Numbered from the stretch's first letter, positions 40,379 to 48,627 are shown. The stretch is 64,000 bases of DNA from Escherichia coli (GCF_001677475.2 NZ_CP015229.1), one strand, 5' to 3'. Made by a program: numbers and translations. The notes: a model not told the origin generated them from the sequence alone.

Positions 40379-40768
40379 ATGATTGACGCTCATGACTTCA
40401 CAAGATGGGTGCGCACACAGGACACCCGTCTGGCTCCCGTTCTTCAGGGATTATTTGATCTTTACATCCGTGGTCGTGACAACAGAGCACGCACTACAAA
40501 ACCGGAGAATGCGGACACCCTTTATTTCACAGTAGACGACTGCTACCGCGTGGACTTCACACCACACGGGCTGGCGTTGCACTGCCTGACACCACACGGC
40601 GAATCACTGCTGGCGTATTACGACTCCCCGGCCTCCGTATTTGCGGCAATGCTGGCGCATCGCACTGCTGGCGGGTGTGCCTCGCTGAGTGAATACACCG
40701 CTGAATTTAACCGCCTTTCCGCCATCTTCTCGCAGGAGTGGCAGCGCGTGACGGGATACCAGCCATGA
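40379..40768 (+). CDS. phage early protein, unknown function
   Basis: 129-aa ORF; stop overlaps gpA start (ATGA). Confidence 0.5.
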   Translation: MIDAHDFTRWVRTQDTRLAPVLQGLFDLYIRGRDNRARTTKPENADTLYFTVDDCYRVDFTPHGLALHCLTPHGESLLAYYDSPASVFAAMLAHRTAGGCASLSEYTAEFNRLSAIFSQEWQRVTGYQP

Positions 40769-43605
40769 GTGAGTTTGCATGGAGCTGGAATGAACCACGG
40801 CCAGCCATTGATCCGGCCAGATTTACGGAGCGCAGGCAGGAAACTGAAACCGACCTGCAACGCGCCATCCGTTACTACCTTGAGGCAGACAAAAGGGCAC
40901 AGGAAGAACAGGAAGCGAAGGAAGAAGCCTTTTTCGCACAATCCACCGTGGGTAAAAAACTCATGGCATCCCTTGAGGAAGCCGGACAGCGTGAAAAGCT
41001 GGCACAGAGCATCATCAGTAAGCGCCGGGCAACAGAACAAGACACGGTAGCCCGTGCCTTTGCCACACTAAAGGCACTACCTGTTTATCTGCGTGAACCA
41101 CTGAGCCGCCACCTCTCTTTCCTGCGCAAAAAACAGGAAGCCGATCGCCGGAAAGGCAAAAAGAGCTGGCAGGCGGAACGCTATGCACGCGGAACCCTGC
41201 GCAAAATATTCGAACGTCTGGACCGCACCGACAGCCGCTGGCTGACACCGGGTTATCGCGCCCTTGCCGGACGCGAACGCCTGGACGATTTGCTTTACCT
41301 GCCGCAGCTCAACAAACACCAGATACAGACGCTGGCCACCATGACAGCGGCGATGTTCAGCAGCACCTTCGAAAAACTCTGCGATGGCTTTGGCGCGACT
41401 GATGGCGAGCTGACCATGGATGTAACGCTGAAGGCGTATCAGATGCTGGCCCGCATGGCGTTACACCTGCACGCCATGCCTCCGCATTATGACGTACTGA
41501 CAACAGACAAAGACCGGAGGAACGAACCAGACACAGAACTGCTGCCGGGCGCAATCCTTCGCCTGACCTGTGCGGAATGGTGGAAACGCAAACTGTGGCT
41601 GTTACGTTGCGAGTGGCGGGAAGAACAACTCCGAGCCGCCTGTCTGGTTTCCAGAAAAACATCGCCCTATCTGAGCCAGGACGCGTTAAGCGAGTTTCGC
41701 GCACAGCGCGAGAAAACACGCGATTTCCTGAAAAGTTTCATGCTGGAAAATGAAGACGGGTTCACGATTGATCTCGAGACGGTGTATTACGCGGGAGTAA
41801 GTAACCCGGTTCACCGTAAGGCAGAAATGATGGCCACCATGAAGGGACTGGAACTTCTGGCCGAAGCCCGTGGCGACAGAGCGGTGTTTCTGACCGTCAC
41901 CTGCCCGTCAAAATACCACGCAACAACGGAGAACGGTCATCCGAACCCCAAATGGAACGGGGCCACCATGCGCGACTCCAGCGATTACCTGGTTAACACG
42001 TTTTTTGCGGCGGTCCGCAAAAAACTGAACCGCGACGGCCTGCGCTGGTATGGCATCCGCACGGTGGAGCCTCACCATGACGGCACTGTGCACTGGCATA
42101 TGATGGTCTTTGCACATCCGGACGAGATTGAAACCATCGTGTCCCACGTCTGCGATATTGCCATTCAGGAGGACCGCCACGAGCTGGGCGATGACATAAC
42201 TCCGCGTTTTAAGGCGGAGTATGTCGACGGCTCAAAAGGCACACCAACCAGCTACATCGCCACCTACATCGGAAAGAACTTGGACAGCCGCGCCGTGGAT
42301 GGCATCGACCCGAAAACGGGCAAGCCACGCGTTGACCACGAAACCGGAAAATCAATGGCCGAGAGCGTGGAGCGCGCCATCGGCTGGGCGCGCCTTCACC
42401 GGGTCCGTCAGTTCCAGTTCTTTGGCATCCCCTCCCGTCAGGTGTGGCGTGAACTGCGCCGCCTTGCCAGCCAGATGGCACGCAATCCGGAAGGCCCGCA
42501 ACGGCTGAAAGATGATGCAATGGATGCGGTACTCGCTGCCGCCGATGCCGGGTGTTTTGCCACCTACATTGAAAAACAGGGTGGCGTGCTTGTTCCACGC
42601 AAGGACTACCTGATTCGCACCGCCTACGACCTCGCAGATGAGCTGAACGATTACGGCGAACAGAGCGTACAGATTTACGGGATCTGGTCACCACTCATCG
42701 GGGAATCCTCCCGTGTGTGCACGCATCCGGATAACTGGAAGTTGGTAAGACGTAAACCAGAACCGGAAGACAACGCCCACGAAAATGGTTTTGACCTTCA
42801 GGGCGGCCCTGCCGCCCCTTGGACTCGTGGCAATAACTGTCCCCGTGTACAGGAAACGGACAATAACGGGACAGAACTGCCGGAAGAACGGCCAGCACCG
42901 TGGCCGCAGCTCCCTGACGGCGTTGAAGTGAACGAATGGATGCGCTCACTGAAACAGCACGAACGCCGGGCGCTGATGCGTTCGCTTCGTGACAAACAGG
43001 CAAAAAACAGCAGTGATGAAATGCAGAGCTGGACACAGAGCCGCAAACAGCAGCGGCCTTTGCCTGATAACCACGAATTACTCGCTAAAGAATGGCGGGA
43101 GTCTGCTGAATCTCTCGGCCTGCATATCGGTGAACAACAGATGCAGCACCTGTTACGGGGCGGCAGCCTGTACGTTGACGGCAGCATCATTGCACCGCAG
43201 GGATTTGAAATTGTACGCAAACCGGATACCCGCCCGGACAGCCGAATCACGCAGCTCTGGCAGCGCCTGAGCCGTAATCATGGCGTAAGCAGCACGGAGA
43301 TCCGCCATAACCCGGTCGCCAGCTATCTGGCACAGCTGGGGGCATCAGACCCTGAAGTCGCCGCACGCCTGGCATCCACACTTCAGCAGGACCAGAACAC
43401 CATGAAAACACCCGTTACCGTGCTTTCTGACATGCTGCGCGCCATCCGCGACGCAGAGCACGCACAGAGAATCAGTGAAACCACTGAACGCGCCCGCCGC
43501 AAAGCAGACCTGCTGCGGGGTGGCCTGACCAGTGGAAACAAAAAACAGACAGAAACGGGACTCATGAATCCCGTAAATGAGCAAAAAACGCGCAGCGATA
43601 TATGA
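40765..43605 (+). CDS. rolling-circle replication initiator, P2 gpA-like, with long C-terminal extension
   Basis: ORF 40738..43605; start set at ATG 40765 (MSEFAWSW); HWHMMVF and ATYIGKN motifs typical of gpA-family nicking proteins; 946 aa. Confidence 0.8.
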   Translation: MSEFAWSWNEPRPAIDPARFTERRQETETDLQRAIRYYLEADKRAQEEQEAKEEAFFAQSTVGKKLMASLEEAGQREKLAQSIISKRRATEQDTVARAFATLKALPVYLREPLSRHLSFLRKKQEADRRKGKKSWQAERYARGTLRKIFERLDRTDSRWLTPGYRALAGRERLDDLLYLPQLNKHQIQTLATMTAAMFSSTFEKLCDGFGATDGELTMDVTLKAYQMLARMALHLHAMPPHYDVLTTDKDRRNEPDTELLPGAILRLTCAEWWKRKLWLLRCEWREEQLRAACLVSRKTSPYLSQDALSEFRAQREKTRDFLKSFMLENEDGFTIDLETVYYAGVSNPVHRKAEMMATMKGLELLAEARGDRAVFLTVTCPSKYHATTENGHPNPKWNGATMRDSSDYLVNTFFAAVRKKLNRDGLRWYGIRTVEPHHDGTVHWHMMVFAHPDEIETIVSHVCDIAIQEDRHELGDDITPRFKAEYVDGSKGTPTSYIATYIGKNLDSRAVDGIDPKTGKPRVDHETGKSMAESVERAIGWARLHRVRQFQFFGIPSRQVWRELRRLASQMARNPEGPQRLKDDAMDAVLAAADAGCFATYIEKQGGVLVPRKDYLIRTAYDLADELNDYGEQSVQIYGIWSPLIGESSRVCTHPDNWKLVRRKPEPEDNAHENGFDLQGGPAAPWTRGNNCPRVQETDNNGTELPEERPAPWPQLPDGVEVNEWMRSLKQHERRALMRSLRDKQAKNSSDEMQSWTQSRKQQRPLPDNHELLAKEWRESAESLGLHIGEQQMQHLLRGGSLYVDGSIIAPQGFEIVRKPDTRPDSRITQLWQRLSRNHGVSSTEIRHNPVASYLAQLGASDPEVAARLASTLQQDQNTMKTPVTVLSDMLRAIRDAEHAQRISETTERARRKADLLRGGLTSGNKKQTETGLMNPVNEQKTRSDI

Positions 43606-43650
43606 AGCGCGCACAAAACAGGCAAAAACGGGATTTTAGAATCCCGTAAA
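43554..43650. promoter_or_regulatory. twin palindromic operator-like sites flanking the putative parM promoter
   Basis: AACGGGACTCATGAATCCCGTAAA at 43554..43577 and AACGGGATTTTAGAATCCCGTAAA at 43627..43650, each an inverted repeat ACGGGA-N8-TCCCGT; TATAT between them. Confidence 0.5.
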
Positions 43651-43681
43651 CGATTAATTAATCAACATAAGGAAAAGCGAC

Positions 43682-44641
43682 ATGAAAATTTGTATCGACG
43701 ACGGCTCCACCAACATCAAGCTGGCATGGACTGAGAACGGCGAACGCCGCAACGCCATCAGCCCGAACAGCTTCAAGTCGGAATGGTCTGCGCCGTTCGG
43801 TGGCACGCAGCCCGCGAACTACATGCTTGATGGCGTGCGCTATGGTTTTGATCCGGTCAGCGATCGCTTTGTCCAGACGACCGACACGCAATACCAGTAC
43901 AGCGATGTGAATGTCATTGCCATTCATCACGCGCTGGTCAAATCAGGCATCACGCCACAGGAGGTGGATGTGGTTGTCACCCTGCCACTGAGCGAGTATT
44001 TCGACACAAACGCACAGCCGGACATGGCCAACATCAACCGCAAAAAAGCGAACGTTATGCGCCCGGTGGAGTACCAGAACGGCGAAGCATTCACTATCCG
44101 TAACGTGCGGGTTATGCCTGAATCCATTCCGGCTGGCTTTAAGGCACTGGCTGACATGAGTCCGTTTGAATCCCTGCTGATTGTAGATTTGGGCGGAACC
44201 ACGCTGGATGTGGCAAAGGTTCAGGGGCAACTGGCAGGTATCAGCCAGGTGTTTTGCGATCCACACGTAGGCGTTTCTCTGATGGCCGATGCCGTACTGT
44301 CGGTGATGGCCACTAACGGTATGCGCACCAGTCACCACATCGCCAATACCATTATCGAACATCGCCATAATGAAGCCTGGCTGCGCCAGCACATCCACAA
44401 TGACGCGCATTACGCCAGCCTGATGGAGGTTATTCGTGAAAAGGAAGAAACACTGAAACAACGCGTGATCCGCGCGCTGGCGGGTTTTTCGGGTTACGGG
44501 CGGGTGATGGTTGTCGGTGGAGGGGCGGAGATTGTGGCACCCGCTATCCGCGAAGCCTGCGGAGTTCATGCGACTTTCATCGCGGACGGGGTGCCACAGT
44601 TTGCTCTGGTTAATGGGCTGTACGCAATGGACAAGGAGTAA
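43682..44641 (+). CDS. actin-like ATPase, ParM/StbA family
   Basis: 319-aa ORF; motifs DDGSTNIKL, SPNSFK, YSDVNVIAIHHAL, MPESIPAG, DLGGTTLD, VVGGGAEI align with plasmid R1 ParM as I recall it. Confidence 0.85.
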   Translation: MKICIDDGSTNIKLAWTENGERRNAISPNSFKSEWSAPFGGTQPANYMLDGVRYGFDPVSDRFVQTTDTQYQYSDVNVIAIHHALVKSGITPQEVDVVVTLPLSEYFDTNAQPDMANINRKKANVMRPVEYQNGEAFTIRNVRVMPESIPAGFKALADMSPFESLLIVDLGGTTLDVAKVQGQLAGISQVFCDPHVGVSLMADAVLSVMATNGMRTSHHIANTIIEHRHNEAWLRQHIHNDAHYASLMEVIREKEETLKQRVIRALAGFSGYGRVMVVGGGAEIVAPAIREACGVHATFIADGVPQFALVNGLYAMDKE

Positions 44642-44645
44642 ACCA

Positions 44646-44957
44646 ATGACGACACCAACCAGACGGATAAGTTTCTATCTGAAGCCTGCGGCCGTCAAGA
44701 ACGAAAGCGAAGCATGCGCCTGGCTGGACAGCCTTACACCAGAAGCCCGCAAAAGCGGCCAACGCGTGGCTTTTCTGGCCGGGCTGGCACTTCTGAAAAT
44801 GAATCCGGCAGAGGCTTACCGACTGGCTGCATGGGCTGACGATGAGGCGTTATCAGTGACACAAACCAGGACAGAATGCCCCGCGTCACAGCCAGTATCA
44901 ACCGCACAGATAACCAGTCAGATGGCCGGAAATATCCGGGCGTTATTTCCCGAATAA
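44646..44957 (+). CDS. ParR-like centromere-binding/repressor protein
   Basis: ATG 44646 with GGAG RBS, 103 aa; RRISFYLKP...AWLDSLTPEARKSGQRVAFLAGLAL resembles R1 ParR N-terminal RHH region; immediately downstream of parM-like gene. Confidence 0.7.
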   Translation: MTTPTRRISFYLKPAAVKNESEACAWLDSLTPEARKSGQRVAFLAGLALLKMNPAEAYRLAAWADDEALSVTQTRTECPASQPVSTAQITSQMAGNIRALFPE

Positions 44958-44962
44958 CACAA

Positions 44963-44990
44963 CATCAGGGCGCATCCGCCCTGATGACTT
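44963..44990 (+). terminator. putative terminator after parR-like gene
   Basis: 10-bp stem CATCAGGGCG/CGCCCTGATG with 4-nt loop, followed by short T-rich stretch. Confidence 0.4.
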
Positions 44991-45020
44991 TAATCCGGGA
45001 ACATAAACAAGGGGGACACA

Positions 45021-45356
45021 ATGCAACACATTGACAGAGAAAAAGCGCAGCGACTGATTGAGCGAATGGAAGCGCTGGCGAAAGAAGAAAATGTCAACAT
45101 CCAAAAAATAGCTGAATGTGGCCAGATAGTTCTTCGTCGTGAAAAAGACATCAAGCAACTGATGTCTGGCGAAATCAGCAAAACATGGACTTCAGGCAAG
45201 AAGACGATTTATTGCAGCTTCTGCAATAAATCCCAGCACGAAGTCATAAAGGTGATTGCCGGACCGTCTGTTTACATCTGCAATGAGTGCGTGGATTTGT
45301 GCAATGAAATTATCAGAAGAGAAGTGACAGACCATGAAGAAAAAACGCATGAATGA
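45021..45356 (+). CDS. ClpX-type C4 zinc-binding-domain protein (novel N-terminal helical region fused to ClpX-like ZBD)
   Basis: 111-aa ORF, GGGGGA RBS; residues [38 protein letters not shown] closely match E. coli ClpX N-domain (about 32 of 39 residues by my recollection); no AAA+ module. Confidence 0.8.
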
Positions 45357-45943
45357 CGAATTTGACGGCTTTTAATTTTATCGGGGCACACTGTCTCCCC
45401 CCGCACGAGGAAAACACGATGAAAAAATACGAATACATGCTAATGAAAGAAGCACTGCGGGCTGGTCTGGCTCCCTGTCCTGTATCCGTAGAAGCTGTTG
45501 TTGGGAACACGATTTTCCGAACGCTGCGAAATCGCGTATCCGTGAAGATGATTCACCAACCACCCAAATCTACCAGCATGATCTATCTGCCGCTGCCCGA
45601 GGCTATCAAACTTATGCGTTCGCTGAAATTTGCGATTTGGATGCAGACACAACTCAACAAAGCGGTGCAAAACACCTTCGTTAAGAAACTGATGCCGGAG
45701 CTTGCTGCCAGATGTGCAAAATGTACCAGACCCGCACTTCAATTTGATCTGTCATTGATTCAACAAGCTACGGAGGCAGAACTGTACCGCCTGTCACCTC
45801 TCCATGATGTTCACACGGAAGCCTCAGAAATGTTCCGGCTCATGTTTCAATTTAATTTTGCCGTTCGACGCACACGCGTTCAGGTCAATCGCATGATGCA
45901 GGCGCAGGAAGAGCTGACGCAACACAAAGGAGGCAACCAGTGA
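45353..45943 (+). CDS. hypothetical protein, translationally coupled to ZBD gene
   Basis: ATG 45353 overlaps upstream stop (ATGA); alternative start ATG 45416 with GAGGAA RBS; no recognisable motif. Confidence 0.55.
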
Positions 45944-46464
45944 GCAAGATTGACTATCAGGCATTACGCGAACGCTATTCACCTGCGCCAGTACCGAAAT
46001 GCCCTATTTGCGGCGAGGAAATGTCAATTCAGCGAATATCTGGAGCACAGGTTGTTTATGCCTGCTCCGGTTATGGTGATGATGGAGATTTCAAAATTGG
46101 TCGAACTCTTGCCGACGAACATTATGAAAAATCGCGCGTAACAGTGTTGGATGTCGGGGATCCTGAAGTATTGGCGCTACTTGATTGGCTGGAAACTAAA
46201 GACAACCGAATCGCTGAACTGGAAAAAATCGCCACTGACTATGCACTTAAATTCCAGAAAGCACAGGACGCATTAAAGCATGCCGCTTTGCTGCATAGCC
46301 GGACGGCGCAACAAACAAATAATTTTGCAGTATCGCTTCCGGACATAAGCGAATATTTCATTAATGACGTATTTCAGCCCTTGCGATACGAGCGGGATGT
46401 TGAAAGAGCCATCATAAAGGCTGGCGGAAAAGCATTGTGGCAGGAGAAACACGACGACAGATAA
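45940..46464 (+). CDS. hypothetical protein with N-terminal Cys-rich (zinc-ribbon-like) segment
   Basis: GTG start overlapping upstream stop (GTGA) with AGGAGG RBS; CPICGEE...YACSG; 174 aa. Confidence 0.55.
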   Translation: MSKIDYQALRERYSPAPVPKCPICGEEMSIQRISGAQVVYACSGYGDDGDFKIGRTLADEHYEKSRVTVLDVGDPEVLALLDWLETKDNRIAELEKIATDYALKFQKAQDALKHAALLHSRTAQQTNNFAVSLPDISEYFINDVFQPLRYERDVERAIIKAGGKALWQEKHDDR

Positions 46465-46516
46465 AAATAACACCTGATCTCCCTCAAACCAGGGCGATAA
46501 TCGCGCATCGCCCTGC

Positions 46517-46543
46517 TGCACAATAGTGCACAAATTTGCACAA
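46517..46543. repeat. three TGCACAA direct repeats at exact 10-bp phasing
   Basis: TGCACAA at 46517, 46527 and 46537; helical-turn periodicity suggests protein binding on one DNA face. Confidence 0.6.
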
Positions 46544-46614
46544 TTTTTTTGAACGACTTTTTGCCCTTCCGGCCCGCGTGGCGGCTGGATCCGTCAAGGA
46601 TCCGTGCGTGCACA

Positions 46615-46630
46615 AAAAAACGCGTTTTTT
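46615..46630. other. perfect palindrome AAAAAACGCGTTTTTT inside phage non-coding block
   Basis: Seen directly; preceded by GGATCCGT direct repeats at 46587 and 46598 and followed by G-rich segment. Confidence 0.6.
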
Positions 46631-46914
46631 CTGCGCGCAGGTGACGGGGGAACAGCCCGCGTTTCAGGGGGTAAATAGCGTTCCCTTAACGATGTCGCAG
46701 CGACACGACAGAATGGCCGTATCGCTCACGCTGAGCGTGAAAAATACGTGAGGGATTCTGATTTGATGGGGTGAAAGGTAAGGCCGTCAAAATCGCACTG
46801 AGGCGGCGAGAACATGCAGTCAGCGCGGTGGGATTGTGTAGAGTCTGGCCGTCGATGATAGCGATAAGTCGGAAGATGTCGTGAAATTATCTGATTGATA
46901 CGGGAGCTGGAGAG

Positions 46915-46941
46915 CCGGGGCATAAATTTTTTATGCCCCGG
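46915..46941. other. perfect 12-bp-stem hairpin CCGGGGCATAAA-ttt-TTTATGCCCCGG
   Basis: Seen directly; no flanking U tract on either strand so not a classical intrinsic terminator. Confidence 0.6.
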
Positions 46942-47041
46942 CGAAGCAGCAGACAAGCGAAGCGCGTCAGTGATGCGGCACCTTGCCGACCACACTTCAT
47001 AAGTGCAAAATACGAGCAAAGAAATCAATGGAGGCTGTTTT

Positions 47042-47566
47042 ATGGTCATTAATTACAAGCAGTTACGAGAAAAACGAGAGCAGGTAAAGGAAAGTTTTCG
47101 CCGCAATGAAGATCTGACCCCGCTTGTACACCTTGCCCAGGGAATTGTTGATGCTTATGAAATCTCTCTGGAGCTGCCATCACAGACATGGACGGATAGC
47201 GACGGTAATCGCCAGCATTACGTTTCATGCGGACTGGAAACAACTGAAGGGTTTCGCAGAATGCCTTTATCTCAGATTCCTGCCGCTACCCCCAAAGCAA
47301 GGGGCGGCAATGATGAGCGAAAACTGATTTTCAGCATTGAGACAGTGGTTGACGACACACCTGGCGAAGTCGCGTTCGTGCATACTCCTCTTTCGATCGC
47401 AATGTATAACGATGAAATACAGGTTCGCGTTAATAATAATATCGTGCCACTTAAAGAAGGTAATTCACCATACACCACCGTTTGTGAAGCCATTCAATAT
47501 TACGTTCTCTCTGAAATTGATAATCTCAAGCCTGACGGCACCCAGAAAATGGTTCAACTCTGGTAA
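47042..47566 (+). CDS. hypothetical protein (orphan gene between non-coding block and portal gene)
   Basis: ATG 47042 with GGAGG RBS (ORF track 47003..47566); followed by strong terminator. Confidence 0.55.
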   Translation: MVINYKQLREKREQVKESFRRNEDLTPLVHLAQGIVDAYEISLELPSQTWTDSDGNRQHYVSCGLETTEGFRRMPLSQIPAATPKARGGNDERKLIFSIETVVDDTPGEVAFVHTPLSIAMYNDEIQVRVNNNIVPLKEGNSPYTTVCEAIQYYVLSEIDNLKPDGTQKMVQLW

Positions 47567-47572
47567 AAAGGA

Positions 47573-47597
47573 CAGCCCCATCACGGGGCTGTTTTTT
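47573..47597. terminator. bidirectional intrinsic terminator between convergent orfZ and portal gene
   Basis: Stem CAGCCCC/GGGGCTG followed by T6 on plus strand and T-rich tract on minus strand; portal stop codon lies in the loop. Confidence 0.7.
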
Positions 47598-48627
47598 CAT
47601 CAAGAAGAGCATAAGAATTAAAACGGATCACCTCTTCGCCAAGCCAGTCATTGATATGCTTCATAGCCTCCATGACGGGCATCAGCTCGTTAATTGCGTA
47701 AACCCGCGCGGCCTTCTCCACATCACCAAACGCACTTTTTTCACCCGGCATCGCCCCCATCAGTTGCGGCGGAACGCGGTGCGCAGCCAGCACATCATCA
47801 CGGGATGCCGCCTTAACATTCATGAACTCATCCTTTGCGGTGATCTGCTGGAACGGCAAAATTTGCACCCCCTCTTTGCCCCCGTTGGGCGCATGAATGA
47901 GCACGTTTTTAAACGCACCACCACCACGCGCACCCTGTAGCGTTTCTTTCAGGGAGTCCATGCTTTCGCGGTTTACCTGCGCTGCACCGATGTAGATGAT
48001 GCACCCGGCGTGGGATCCGTTGTCGTAATACAGTTTTCTGAACATGTCCGCCGAATGAGACAGGCTGGCCGAGAGTAATGCGCCGAGATATTCCGGCATG
48101 CCGTAGATTTCCTGGTTAATGTCAGGATTCATCAGGTGGCACACTTTGCTTGGGCGAAACTGAAACGCGTCCTTGCCATCCTGCACATACCACCATGATT
48201 CAAGATCGCTTCCGCGTCGCATGTATTTCGCCAGGGCGTGCCGTAATTTAAGCGGTTCGCCGAGCATATTGCTTCGAAGCTCAAGGAATGCGTTACCGAA
48301 CACAAACCAGTCCAGCGCCAGCGCCGAGAAATCCTGCCGGGAAAGCAGCGGGTGCGGGATGTAGCAACCGAGTAATACATTGCGCTTAAAGTAAAGCGCA
48401 GACTGATGCCAGGACGTTTGCCGGGCAGCTCTTGCCAGACCGTACCAGTCCACCGGGGTTTCATACCACCGCCCGTTATCAGCACAGTACATATTGTCCA
48501 GCAGGTCATGCCCGGTCAGGCGATAAGGACCATCAAATGTGAATGCACTGAGCGATGATTCTTTCCTGAGCGCATCAGCGAGATCAATGCGTGAACTCAT
48601 GCGCACTTTTTTATTTTTTCTGCTCAT
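47581..48627 (-). CDS. portal protein, P2 gpQ-like
   Basis: 348-aa ORF, leftward, immediately downstream of terminase ATPase gene with ATGA overlap; size and position as P2 Q. Confidence 0.75.
   Translation of the reverse strand: MSRKNKKVRMSSRIDLADALRKESSLSAFTFDGPYRLTGHDLLDNMYCADNGRWYETPVDWYGLARAARQTSWHQSALYFKRNVLLGCYIPHPLLSRQDFSALALDWFVFGNAFLELRSNMLGEPLKLRHALAKYMRRGSDLESWWYVQDGKDAFQFRPSKVCHLMNPDINQEIYGMPEYLGALLSASLSHSADMFRKLYYDNGSHAGCIIYIGAAQVNRESMDSLKETLQGARGGGAFKNVLIHAPNGGKEGVQILPFQQITAKDEFMNVKAASRDDVLAAHRVPPQLMGAMPGEKSAFGDVEKAARVYAINELMPVMEAMKHINDWLGEEVIRFNSYALLDEKTAP

Follow-up and report, generated by a model that had tools for sequence, protein, structure and literature searches.

In bacteriophage P2, the interval between the replication gene gpA and the portal gene gpQ lies next to the cos site, undergoes a high turnover of cargo and carries the genes tin and old, which are transcribed leftward from their own promoter. 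About one quarter of Escherichia coli P2-like phages possess a presumptive partition system at this hotspot (Rousset et al. 2022; PMC9122126). We analyzed the equivalent interval in a stretch of 64,000 nucleotides of E. coli DNA (NZ_CP015229.1), referred to here as the window, whose positions serve as coordinates throughout. The prophage is, to judge from its sequence, P88-like (Xuanwuvirus, Peduoviridae) and a relative of P2. The original prediction regarded the interval as a homolog of the P2 tin/old locus, which the present comparison supports, and as a single island that could form an undescribed system, which it does not: the locus is the catalogued variable cargo region beside cos of a P88-like (P2-family) prophage and its content is a particular cargo mosaic in a known hotspot, where a new system is not demonstrated.

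The interval shares with its P2 counterpart the replication-to-portal position, the proximity of cos and the rapid exchange of cargo. It differs in that its cargo runs with gpA, that known defense genes are absent and that cos and the portal gene, which in P2 have no gene between them, are here separated by an extra one. The cargo genes have their own described relatives. The Ea22 protein of bacteriophage λ is encoded in the early exo-xis region, favors lysogeny and forms a coiled-coil tetramer (PMC7093339, PMC10834534), with a C-terminal domain that differs among homologs (PMC10834534). The isolated zinc-binding domain (ZBD) of host ClpX is a dimer docking SspB and RssB and, when supplied free in trans, inhibits the RssB-dependent degradation of sigma-S by ClpXP in vitro (PMC7226468).

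Anatomy of the gpA-gpQ interval

The interval is delimited by the following genes:

40738-43605, plus strand: gpA-like replication endonuclease, left boundary, annotated as such in ETEC4090, P88 and PhiR44_2
47581-48627, minus strand: portal protein (gpQ homolog), right boundary of the locus

The real start of the gpA-like gene probably lies downstream of 40738. Six plus-strand genes, all in the same direction as gpA, follow its stop codon at 43605, and neither tin nor old is present between the replication endonuclease and portal genes; both points had been anticipated. The gene order gpA, ParM, ParR, variable genes, conserved non-coding block and portal is common to P88, PhiR44_2 and many E. 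coli prophages. In P88/Xuanwuvirus (NC_026014, LR595891), PhiR44_2 (PV340564) and related phages, the conserved parts (gpA, ParM, ParR, the zinc-domain gene ClpX-ZnF described below, the cos block and the portal gene) show 94-98% identity and an unchanged order. PhiR44_2 also carries the gene preceding the portal, called here the orphan gene. P88 lacks it and has a 112-amino acid (aa) gene in place of two cargo genes, hyp174 and the Ead/Ea22-like gene. The G+C content of the cargo genes amounts to 43-49% versus 55-58% for gpA and ParM.

We compared the interval with 5,426 complete E. coli genomes, the basis of all genome counts given here. Some part of it is matched in 1,821 of them, a figure that includes short matches of the Ead gene in lambdoid prophages, and the full combination including the orphan gene occurs in none (0/5,426), the best five covering 83-85% of the query. 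Rather than a single island, the interval is a mosaic of four independent parts: a ParMR cassette, a swappable cargo slot, a cos region with an old hairpin, and an orphan cassette. The locus map is thereby corrected, since the non-coding block is better read as a packaging site and ParMR as lineage content, and the locus should not be counted as one new system. A working definition of the P88-type cargo slot is also gained, for prophages present in roughly one quarter of complete E. coli genomes.

PADLOC-DB 2.0 returned zero matches to known defense proteins for the six locus proteins (E <= 0.1), in agreement with the expectation that no recognized defense family would be found. In Pfam, NCBIfam and PADLOC, the small adjacent genes gave no match to domains of toxins or antitoxins, and a search of 43400-47800 at E <= 1 yielded no Rfam family. 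Arrangements of the same classes can already be found in Table S5 of Rousset et al. 2022, untested in that study; 'clpx' is absent from its Table S2 of tested systems, and ClpX and Ead arrangements are not among these.

A swappable cargo slot with independently assorting genes

In P88-type prophages, the cargo slot extends from the parR stop codon to position 46517. Homology to P88 ends at the ClpX-ZnF stop (45353) and restarts at 46517. The slot contains here:

45021-45356, plus strand: ClpX-ZnF, 111 aa, an N-terminal helical domain (residues 1-58) followed, in residues 59-104, by a copy of the C4 zinc-binding domain of ClpX
45419 (alternative 45353)-45943, plus strand: hyp174, basic and predicted helical, of a family restricted to P2-like gpA-gpQ intervals
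45925-45963, plus strand: 39-bp hyp174/Ead junction (hyp174 end, Shine-Dalgarno sequence, Ead start), a putative mosaic boundary
45940-46464, plus strand: Ead/Ea22-like protein, 174 aa, with CxxC in its N-terminal region and a coiled coil in its center (phrog_368; ead/Ea22-like according to PGAP)

The content of this slot differs among otherwise closely related prophages, as expected of an accessory region. In a sample spread across the ranking of matching E. coli records, it was occupied by nothing, by Ead alone, by two Ead genes, by ClpX-ZnF with various hypothetical genes (one of the XF1762 family), by ClpX-ZnF with an oppositely oriented Phd/Doc pair, by a helix-turn-helix (HTH) plus PIN combination, by YafO or by DUF4760. 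The succession of ClpX-ZnF and either an oppositely oriented Phd/Doc pair or a YafO toxin was encountered in L023 (E. coli BCE049) and also in H49-H51 and H59; a functional link between the zinc-domain copy and such addiction modules is conceivable.

Each of the three genes occurs without the others. The present ClpX-ZnF allele is found in 111 genomes and the hyp174-Ead block in 15. ClpX-ZnF is the sole cargo gene in Salmonella P2-like prophages, which lack ParMR, hyp174 and Ead, and elsewhere stands alone or with other neighbors; Ead occurs without ClpX-ZnF and hyp174; and a relative of hyp174 without ClpX-ZnF lies directly 3' of gpA-distal small genes. In one locus, hyp174 is 94% identical to the present copy, the adjoining ClpX-ZnF is 56% identical and a DUF7446 gene is inserted before Ead. 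The 39-bp junction is 100% identical in hundreds of lambdoid prophages and in some plasmids, where it follows DUF551, DUF2737 or DUF7446 genes. Because identical copies are located behind quite different upstream genes, the junction looks like a recombination boundary at which genes are swapped between lambdoid and P2-like phages. The separate occurrence of the genes, the mismatched identities of neighbors and the junction shared with lambdoid prophages lead us to see in the slot a series of accessory early genes that assort independently of one another, in a manner comparable to the exo-xis/ea region of lambdoid phages. An obligate three-gene system was rejected as the leading interpretation on the ground that each gene is found without the others.

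A phage protein carrying the ClpX zinc-binding domain

Residues 59-104 of ClpX-ZnF match PF06689 (E = 4e-17) and the E. coli ClpX ZBD structure PDB 1ovx (E = 2e-20; see also 2ds5-2ds8). Over these 46 residues, the zinc domain is about 78% identical to residues 10-57 of E. coli ClpX, and 31 of the 36 residues from Y14 to R49 of ClpX are kept. This phage protein thus shares the C4 zinc finger of ClpX and differs from it by lacking the AAA+ unfoldase, instead of which it possesses a phage-specific helical N-terminal domain of 58 residues. No AAA+ module is present in its 111 aa, and the NCBIfam clpX model scores 50 bits against a cut-off of 371. In the comparison with host clpX, 21 of 33 identical residues use different codons (synonymous difference pS = 0.88). 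Since synonymous sites are saturated, the copy must be old and under strong purifying selection; for the same reason, a recent capture of the host domain was rejected. In the family alignment, the zinc domain stays host-like while the N-terminal domain diverges. The full-length family is narrow, being confined to Escherichia and Salmonella, and all the genomic contexts examined correspond to P2-like gpA-gpQ intervals except one short contig (L011). No paper describing such a phage protein was found in the searchable literature. Small, strongly constrained and recurrent in P2-like phages, ClpX-ZnF constitutes the one tractable candidate of the locus that merits experiment.

The Ead/Ea22-like protein and hyp174

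The original prediction held that none of the four non-ParMR proteins could be assigned by motif to a known defense family. This remains true with respect to PADLOC; one of the four, however, is a clear Ead/Ea22 member, aligning with positions 1-134 of the 139 of PF13935 (E = 1.3e-32). It shares with λ Ea22 and P22 Ead the Pfam family, a short N-terminal region followed by a coiled coil, the accessory position in an early operon and the mosaic junction common to lambdoid prophages. It differs from them by its location in a P2-like and not a lambdoid genome and by its C-terminal part, which has no PDB sequence match at E <= 0.1, the solved λ Ea22 C-terminal domain included. By analogy with λ Ea22, this protein would most likely act as a developmental modulator.

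The preferred start of hyp174 at 45419 is an ATG preceded by a Shine-Dalgarno sequence and is used by PGAP/RefSeq for the identical gene in ETEC4090. It would leave 62 nt between ClpX-ZnF and hyp174. The three-gene coupled operon initially proposed is retained for its second half, where the Ead start overlaps the hyp174 end by GTGA, and, if the start at 45419 is used, not for its first. An alternative start at 45353 would overlap the ClpX-ZnF stop by ATGA and add 22 codons (45353-45418). This extension is partly kept in a 74% identical homolog (P0003) and absent from other homologs; the same ATGA starts unrelated downstream genes in P88 and PhiR44_2.

The hyp174 protein has an isoelectric point of 10 and matches nothing in Pfam, PHROGs, NCBIfam, PADLOC or PDB. 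It contains no hydrophobic stretch of the membrane type, its maximum 19-residue Kyte-Doolittle mean being 1.23. A set of 5.8e9 proteins yielded eight clusters of relatives, and one of 1.84e9 yielded three representatives; a profile search of the latter set added only one relative. About 70 alignment columns are invariant across members down to 56% identity. An AlphaFold2 model built from seven sequences was discarded as unusable (pLDDT 47).

Expression and possible roles of the slot genes

The slot genes follow gpA in the same direction with short gaps between them, and a promoter scan found promoter-like sites no more frequently than in shuffled sequence. In contrast, P2 old/tin and the Phd/Doc cargo are oppositely oriented. 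Co-orientation, short gaps and the lack of promoter excess make expression with the early operon the simplest expectation. The slot genes would probably be expressed together with gpA upon infection or induction. Their role would in that case be to influence the host or the balance between lysis and lysogeny, and not to provide a defense expressed in the lysogen. Taken as a whole, a P88-type mosaic hotspot whose slot genes act as early accessory modulators is the best explanation of the locus, and we hold it to be moderately probable. Two points weigh against it in addition to those raised below: ParMR cassettes are usually equipped with an autoregulated promoter of their own, from which the slot genes could be transcribed in the lysogen, and the hotspot is enriched in defense systems, many of them without recognizable domains (PMC9122126).

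The conservation of the ClpX residues, together with the inhibition exerted in trans by the free host ZBD, suggests that ClpX-ZnF may be a decoy for ClpXP adaptors. Most likely acting as a free adaptor-docking domain, it would titrate ZBD-dependent adaptors or substrates off ClpXP or pair with ClpX N-domains. In its complete form, this proposal depicts ClpX-ZnF as a mimic that would sequester ZBD adaptors or substrates (SspB, RssB and λ O- or MuA-type clients) or poison ClpX N-domain dimers, and thereby rewire ClpXP during phage development; we advance it tentatively, as a possibility with the odds somewhat against it. The decoy idea is an extrapolation to the phage protein of in vitro results obtained with the ZBD of the host. 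Within this proposal, hyp174 may be a partner of ClpX-ZnF in the present locus. If correct, it would define a class of phage anti-protease or anti-adaptor factors not described so far, with the exclusion of ClpX-dependent phages such as Mu as a possible side effect. A ClpXP adaptor decoy would also represent a new control of host proteolysis by temperate phages, one that is biochemically easy to test.

Alternatively, ClpX-ZnF, hyp174 and Ead could compose one new anti-phage system, for example of the abortive-infection type, lodged in a P2-type defense hotspot. Their location, shared with Old, Tin and many validated systems (PMC9122126), their G+C content below that of core genes and the lack of any known domain in hyp174 are compatible with this idea. 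The order ClpX-ZnF, hyp174, Ead is moreover kept in several lineages at 51-77% identity, as would also be expected of a functional three-gene unit, and this conservation counts against an array of independent passengers. On the other hand, no PADLOC match was obtained, each gene is found without the others and adjacent genes may show mismatched identities, 56% versus 94% in the locus mentioned above. Furthermore, Ead/Ea22 is a common lambdoid early family whose λ member is developmental (PMC7093339), and the trio runs with the early operon without a promoter-like site of its own, unlike old/tin and Phd/Doc. We therefore regard a three-gene defense system as unlikely and prefer to consider the slot genes as early accessory modulators.

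The slot genes and ParMR could also serve together in the maintenance of the prophage or of an episome, the zinc domain tuning the turnover of labile antitoxins by ClpXP and hyp174 and Ead acting as further stability factors. The slot lies directly 3' of ParMR and some of its other alleles hold addiction modules (Phd/Doc beside ClpX-ZnF, HTH+PIN and YafO). P1 Phd is reported to be a ClpXP substrate. MqsA, another antitoxin, is likewise reported to be broken down by ClpXP (PMC8808172). Yet the prophages are almost always chromosomal, Salmonella P2-like prophages carry ClpX-ZnF without ParMR or a toxin-antitoxin pair, and neither hyp174 nor Ead displays a toxin or antitoxin signature, which makes a maintenance role quite improbable compared with early accessory modulation. 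Finally, the very narrow distribution of hyp174 and the mosaic structure of the slot could indicate that hotspot recombination carries the cargo genes along as neutral hitch-hikers or as remnants in decay, devoid of selected function, a most improbable view given that all open reading frames (ORFs) are intact, that the zinc domain is under strong purifying selection, that hyp174 retains its invariant columns and that the orphan fold is confidently predicted and common to many Gammaproteobacteria.

The non-coding block: cos region and hairpin

Between the Ead and orphan genes, a non-coding gap of exactly 577 bp (46465-47041) comprises two conserved sub-blocks:

46512-46665, no strand: sub-block A, conserved non-coding cos region, with the cos-like 19-mer GGTGACGGGGGAACAGCCC at 46640-46658
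46903-46978, no strand: sub-block B, with a perfect 13-bp hairpin at 46914-46942

The length and non-coding nature of this gap had been correctly recognized; its description as repeat-rich is not retained, as it contains only short two-copy matches and the single 13-bp hairpin. Substitutions in every small ORF of the block are evenly distributed across the three codon positions, implying that these ORFs are not genes; the equivalents of P88 gp21 and gp22 and a 107-aa minus-strand ORF were rejected on this basis.

We interpret the block as a conserved cis-acting cos (packaging) region accompanied by an old hairpin, an assignment that relies on comparative evidence. Sub-block A was found in 1,149 genomes, where it is 95-99% identical and in no case bears a coding annotation. 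It is 88% kept in a distant P2-like phage (L008) whose portal and terminase genes are only 73% identical, and 75% kept in an Enterobacter phage. Its 54-bp core also occurs in a different P2-like prophage (CP058308, locus L022), where it ends 172 bp from the portal stop codon; in P2, 168 bp separate the end of the cos 19-mer from the Q stop. In a multiple alignment with L022 as intermediate, positions 46640-46658 line up with the P2 cos 19-mer GGCGAGGCGGGGAAAGCAC and with 186 cos, the L022 19-mer being identical to P2 cos at 15 of 19 positions. Among six related loci, variation within the block is lowest in the 40 nt around the 19-mer and in the hairpin region. The assignment is convincing because of the L022 intermediate, the position and the conservation, and not because of direct similarity to P2: a direct BLAST comparison of the block with the P2 cos junction gave chance-level matches only.

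Several observations weigh against this interpretation. The best ungapped 19-mer is identical to P2 cos at 13 of 19 positions, a score without significance by itself, being reached by 15 equally good matches in the window, and the assignment combines this identity with position and conservation rather than with mapped ends. In addition, the linear record LR595891 (Xuanwuvirus P88_4B11) breaks at 46561/46562, 78 bp to the left of the 19-mer. No paper documenting how these ends were defined was found, and they are therefore taken to support the general region only.

Sub-block B abuts the portal stop codon in P88 and also adjoins ogr in an unrelated P2-like prophage; its hairpin is probably an ancestral end-of-operon hairpin. 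The approximately 240 bp from the cos core to the hairpin (46661-46902) are conserved only among close P88-like phages and have no coding signature. In L008 and L019, this position is occupied by a 167-aa gene distantly related to the orphan gene.

The partition cassette

The first part of the interval includes:

43539-43580 and 43612-43653, plus strand: two 42-bp direct repeats, 81% identical, with a 73-bp spacing
43682-44641, plus strand: ParM-type actin-like segregation ATPase (phrog_691 'partition protein', E = 3.7e-90; Pfam StbA_N/ParM_N on homologs)
44646-44957, plus strand: ParR-like partition adaptor, Plasmid_stab_B (phrog_2515, E = 1.5e-57; PF10784 on homologs)
44963-44986, no strand: 10-bp GC-rich hairpin located 3' of parR and 5' of ClpX-ZnF

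An actin-like ParM and a small ParR adaptor in tandem correspond to a type II partition system. The parMR-like pair noted by the original prediction is therefore real; it is not special to this interval, being present in 1,306 genomes (about 24%), and on the strength of this number we consider it as frequent lineage content. Its 1,452 places are chromosomal as opposed to 2 on plasmids, so that a cassette of plasmid type is carried by integrated P2-like prophages and hardly ever by plasmids. The parC centromere of plasmid R1 comprises ten iterons. The present cassette resembles R1-type ParMRC by its actin-like ParM, its small ParR-like protein and the palindrome-bearing repeats upstream of parM; it differs by the presence of two repeats only, by NCBIfam ParM scores far under the curated cut-off and by its host element, an integrated prophage and not a plasmid. 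The two repeats straddle the gpA stop codon just 5' of parM and each contains the palindrome ACGGGAyT..AATCCCGT, which makes them a plausible candidate for a parC centromere or ParR operator. The hairpin at 44963-44986 could attenuate ParMR read-through into the cargo slot.

The orphan cassette and the portal end

The last part of the interval carries the following features:

47042-47566, plus strand: orphan gene, 174 aa, with its own Shine-Dalgarno sequence GGAGG at 47030 (phrog_5091, E = 9e-67)
47572-47592, no strand: bidirectional intrinsic terminator, a GC-rich hairpin with T-runs on both sides, serving the orphan gene (plus) and the portal/terminase operon (minus)

Both the orphan gene and the strong bidirectional terminator had been predicted and are confirmed. 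Positions 46979-47605 are absent from P88 and ETEC4090 and present in PhiR44_2, and the non-coding block together with the orphan gene occurs in 396 genomes. The orphan gene is thus a separate cassette (46979-47605) inserted between the hairpin and the portal gene. Its own terminator and its insertion between neighbors that are adjacent in relatives are characteristic of a moron. No promoter was found by the scan; by eye, TTGCCG-17 nt-CAAAAT matches only 8 of 12 consensus positions. Being on the portal side of cos, the orphan gene resides at one end of the packaged chromosome and the remaining cargo at the other.

The orphan protein has no Pfam match and, by sequence, belongs to a narrow family with members in E. 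coli, Salmonella and Trabulsiella. In other P2-like phages, the gene that immediately precedes the portal, located between sub-blocks A and B, encodes a relative of about 25% identity. The AlphaFold2 model is reasonably confident (pLDDT 78.8, pTM 0.70). At E <= 1e-3, Foldseek retrieved 41 AFDB50 proteins with this fold; almost all of them lack a name and measure about 160-175 aa, and the majority come from Gammaproteobacteria, among them Yersinia, Xenorhabdus, Photorhabdus, Klebsiella, Pseudomonas and Histophilus. According to this model, the orphan protein would belong to a widespread fold family without assignable activity.

The cassette supplies the Shine-Dalgarno sequence, the bidirectional terminator, whose hairpin overlaps the portal stop codon, and the last eight or so codons of the portal gene. 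Portal homology with P88 begins only at 47606, which indicates that the cassette replaced these last codons and provided a new stop inside the terminator hairpin.

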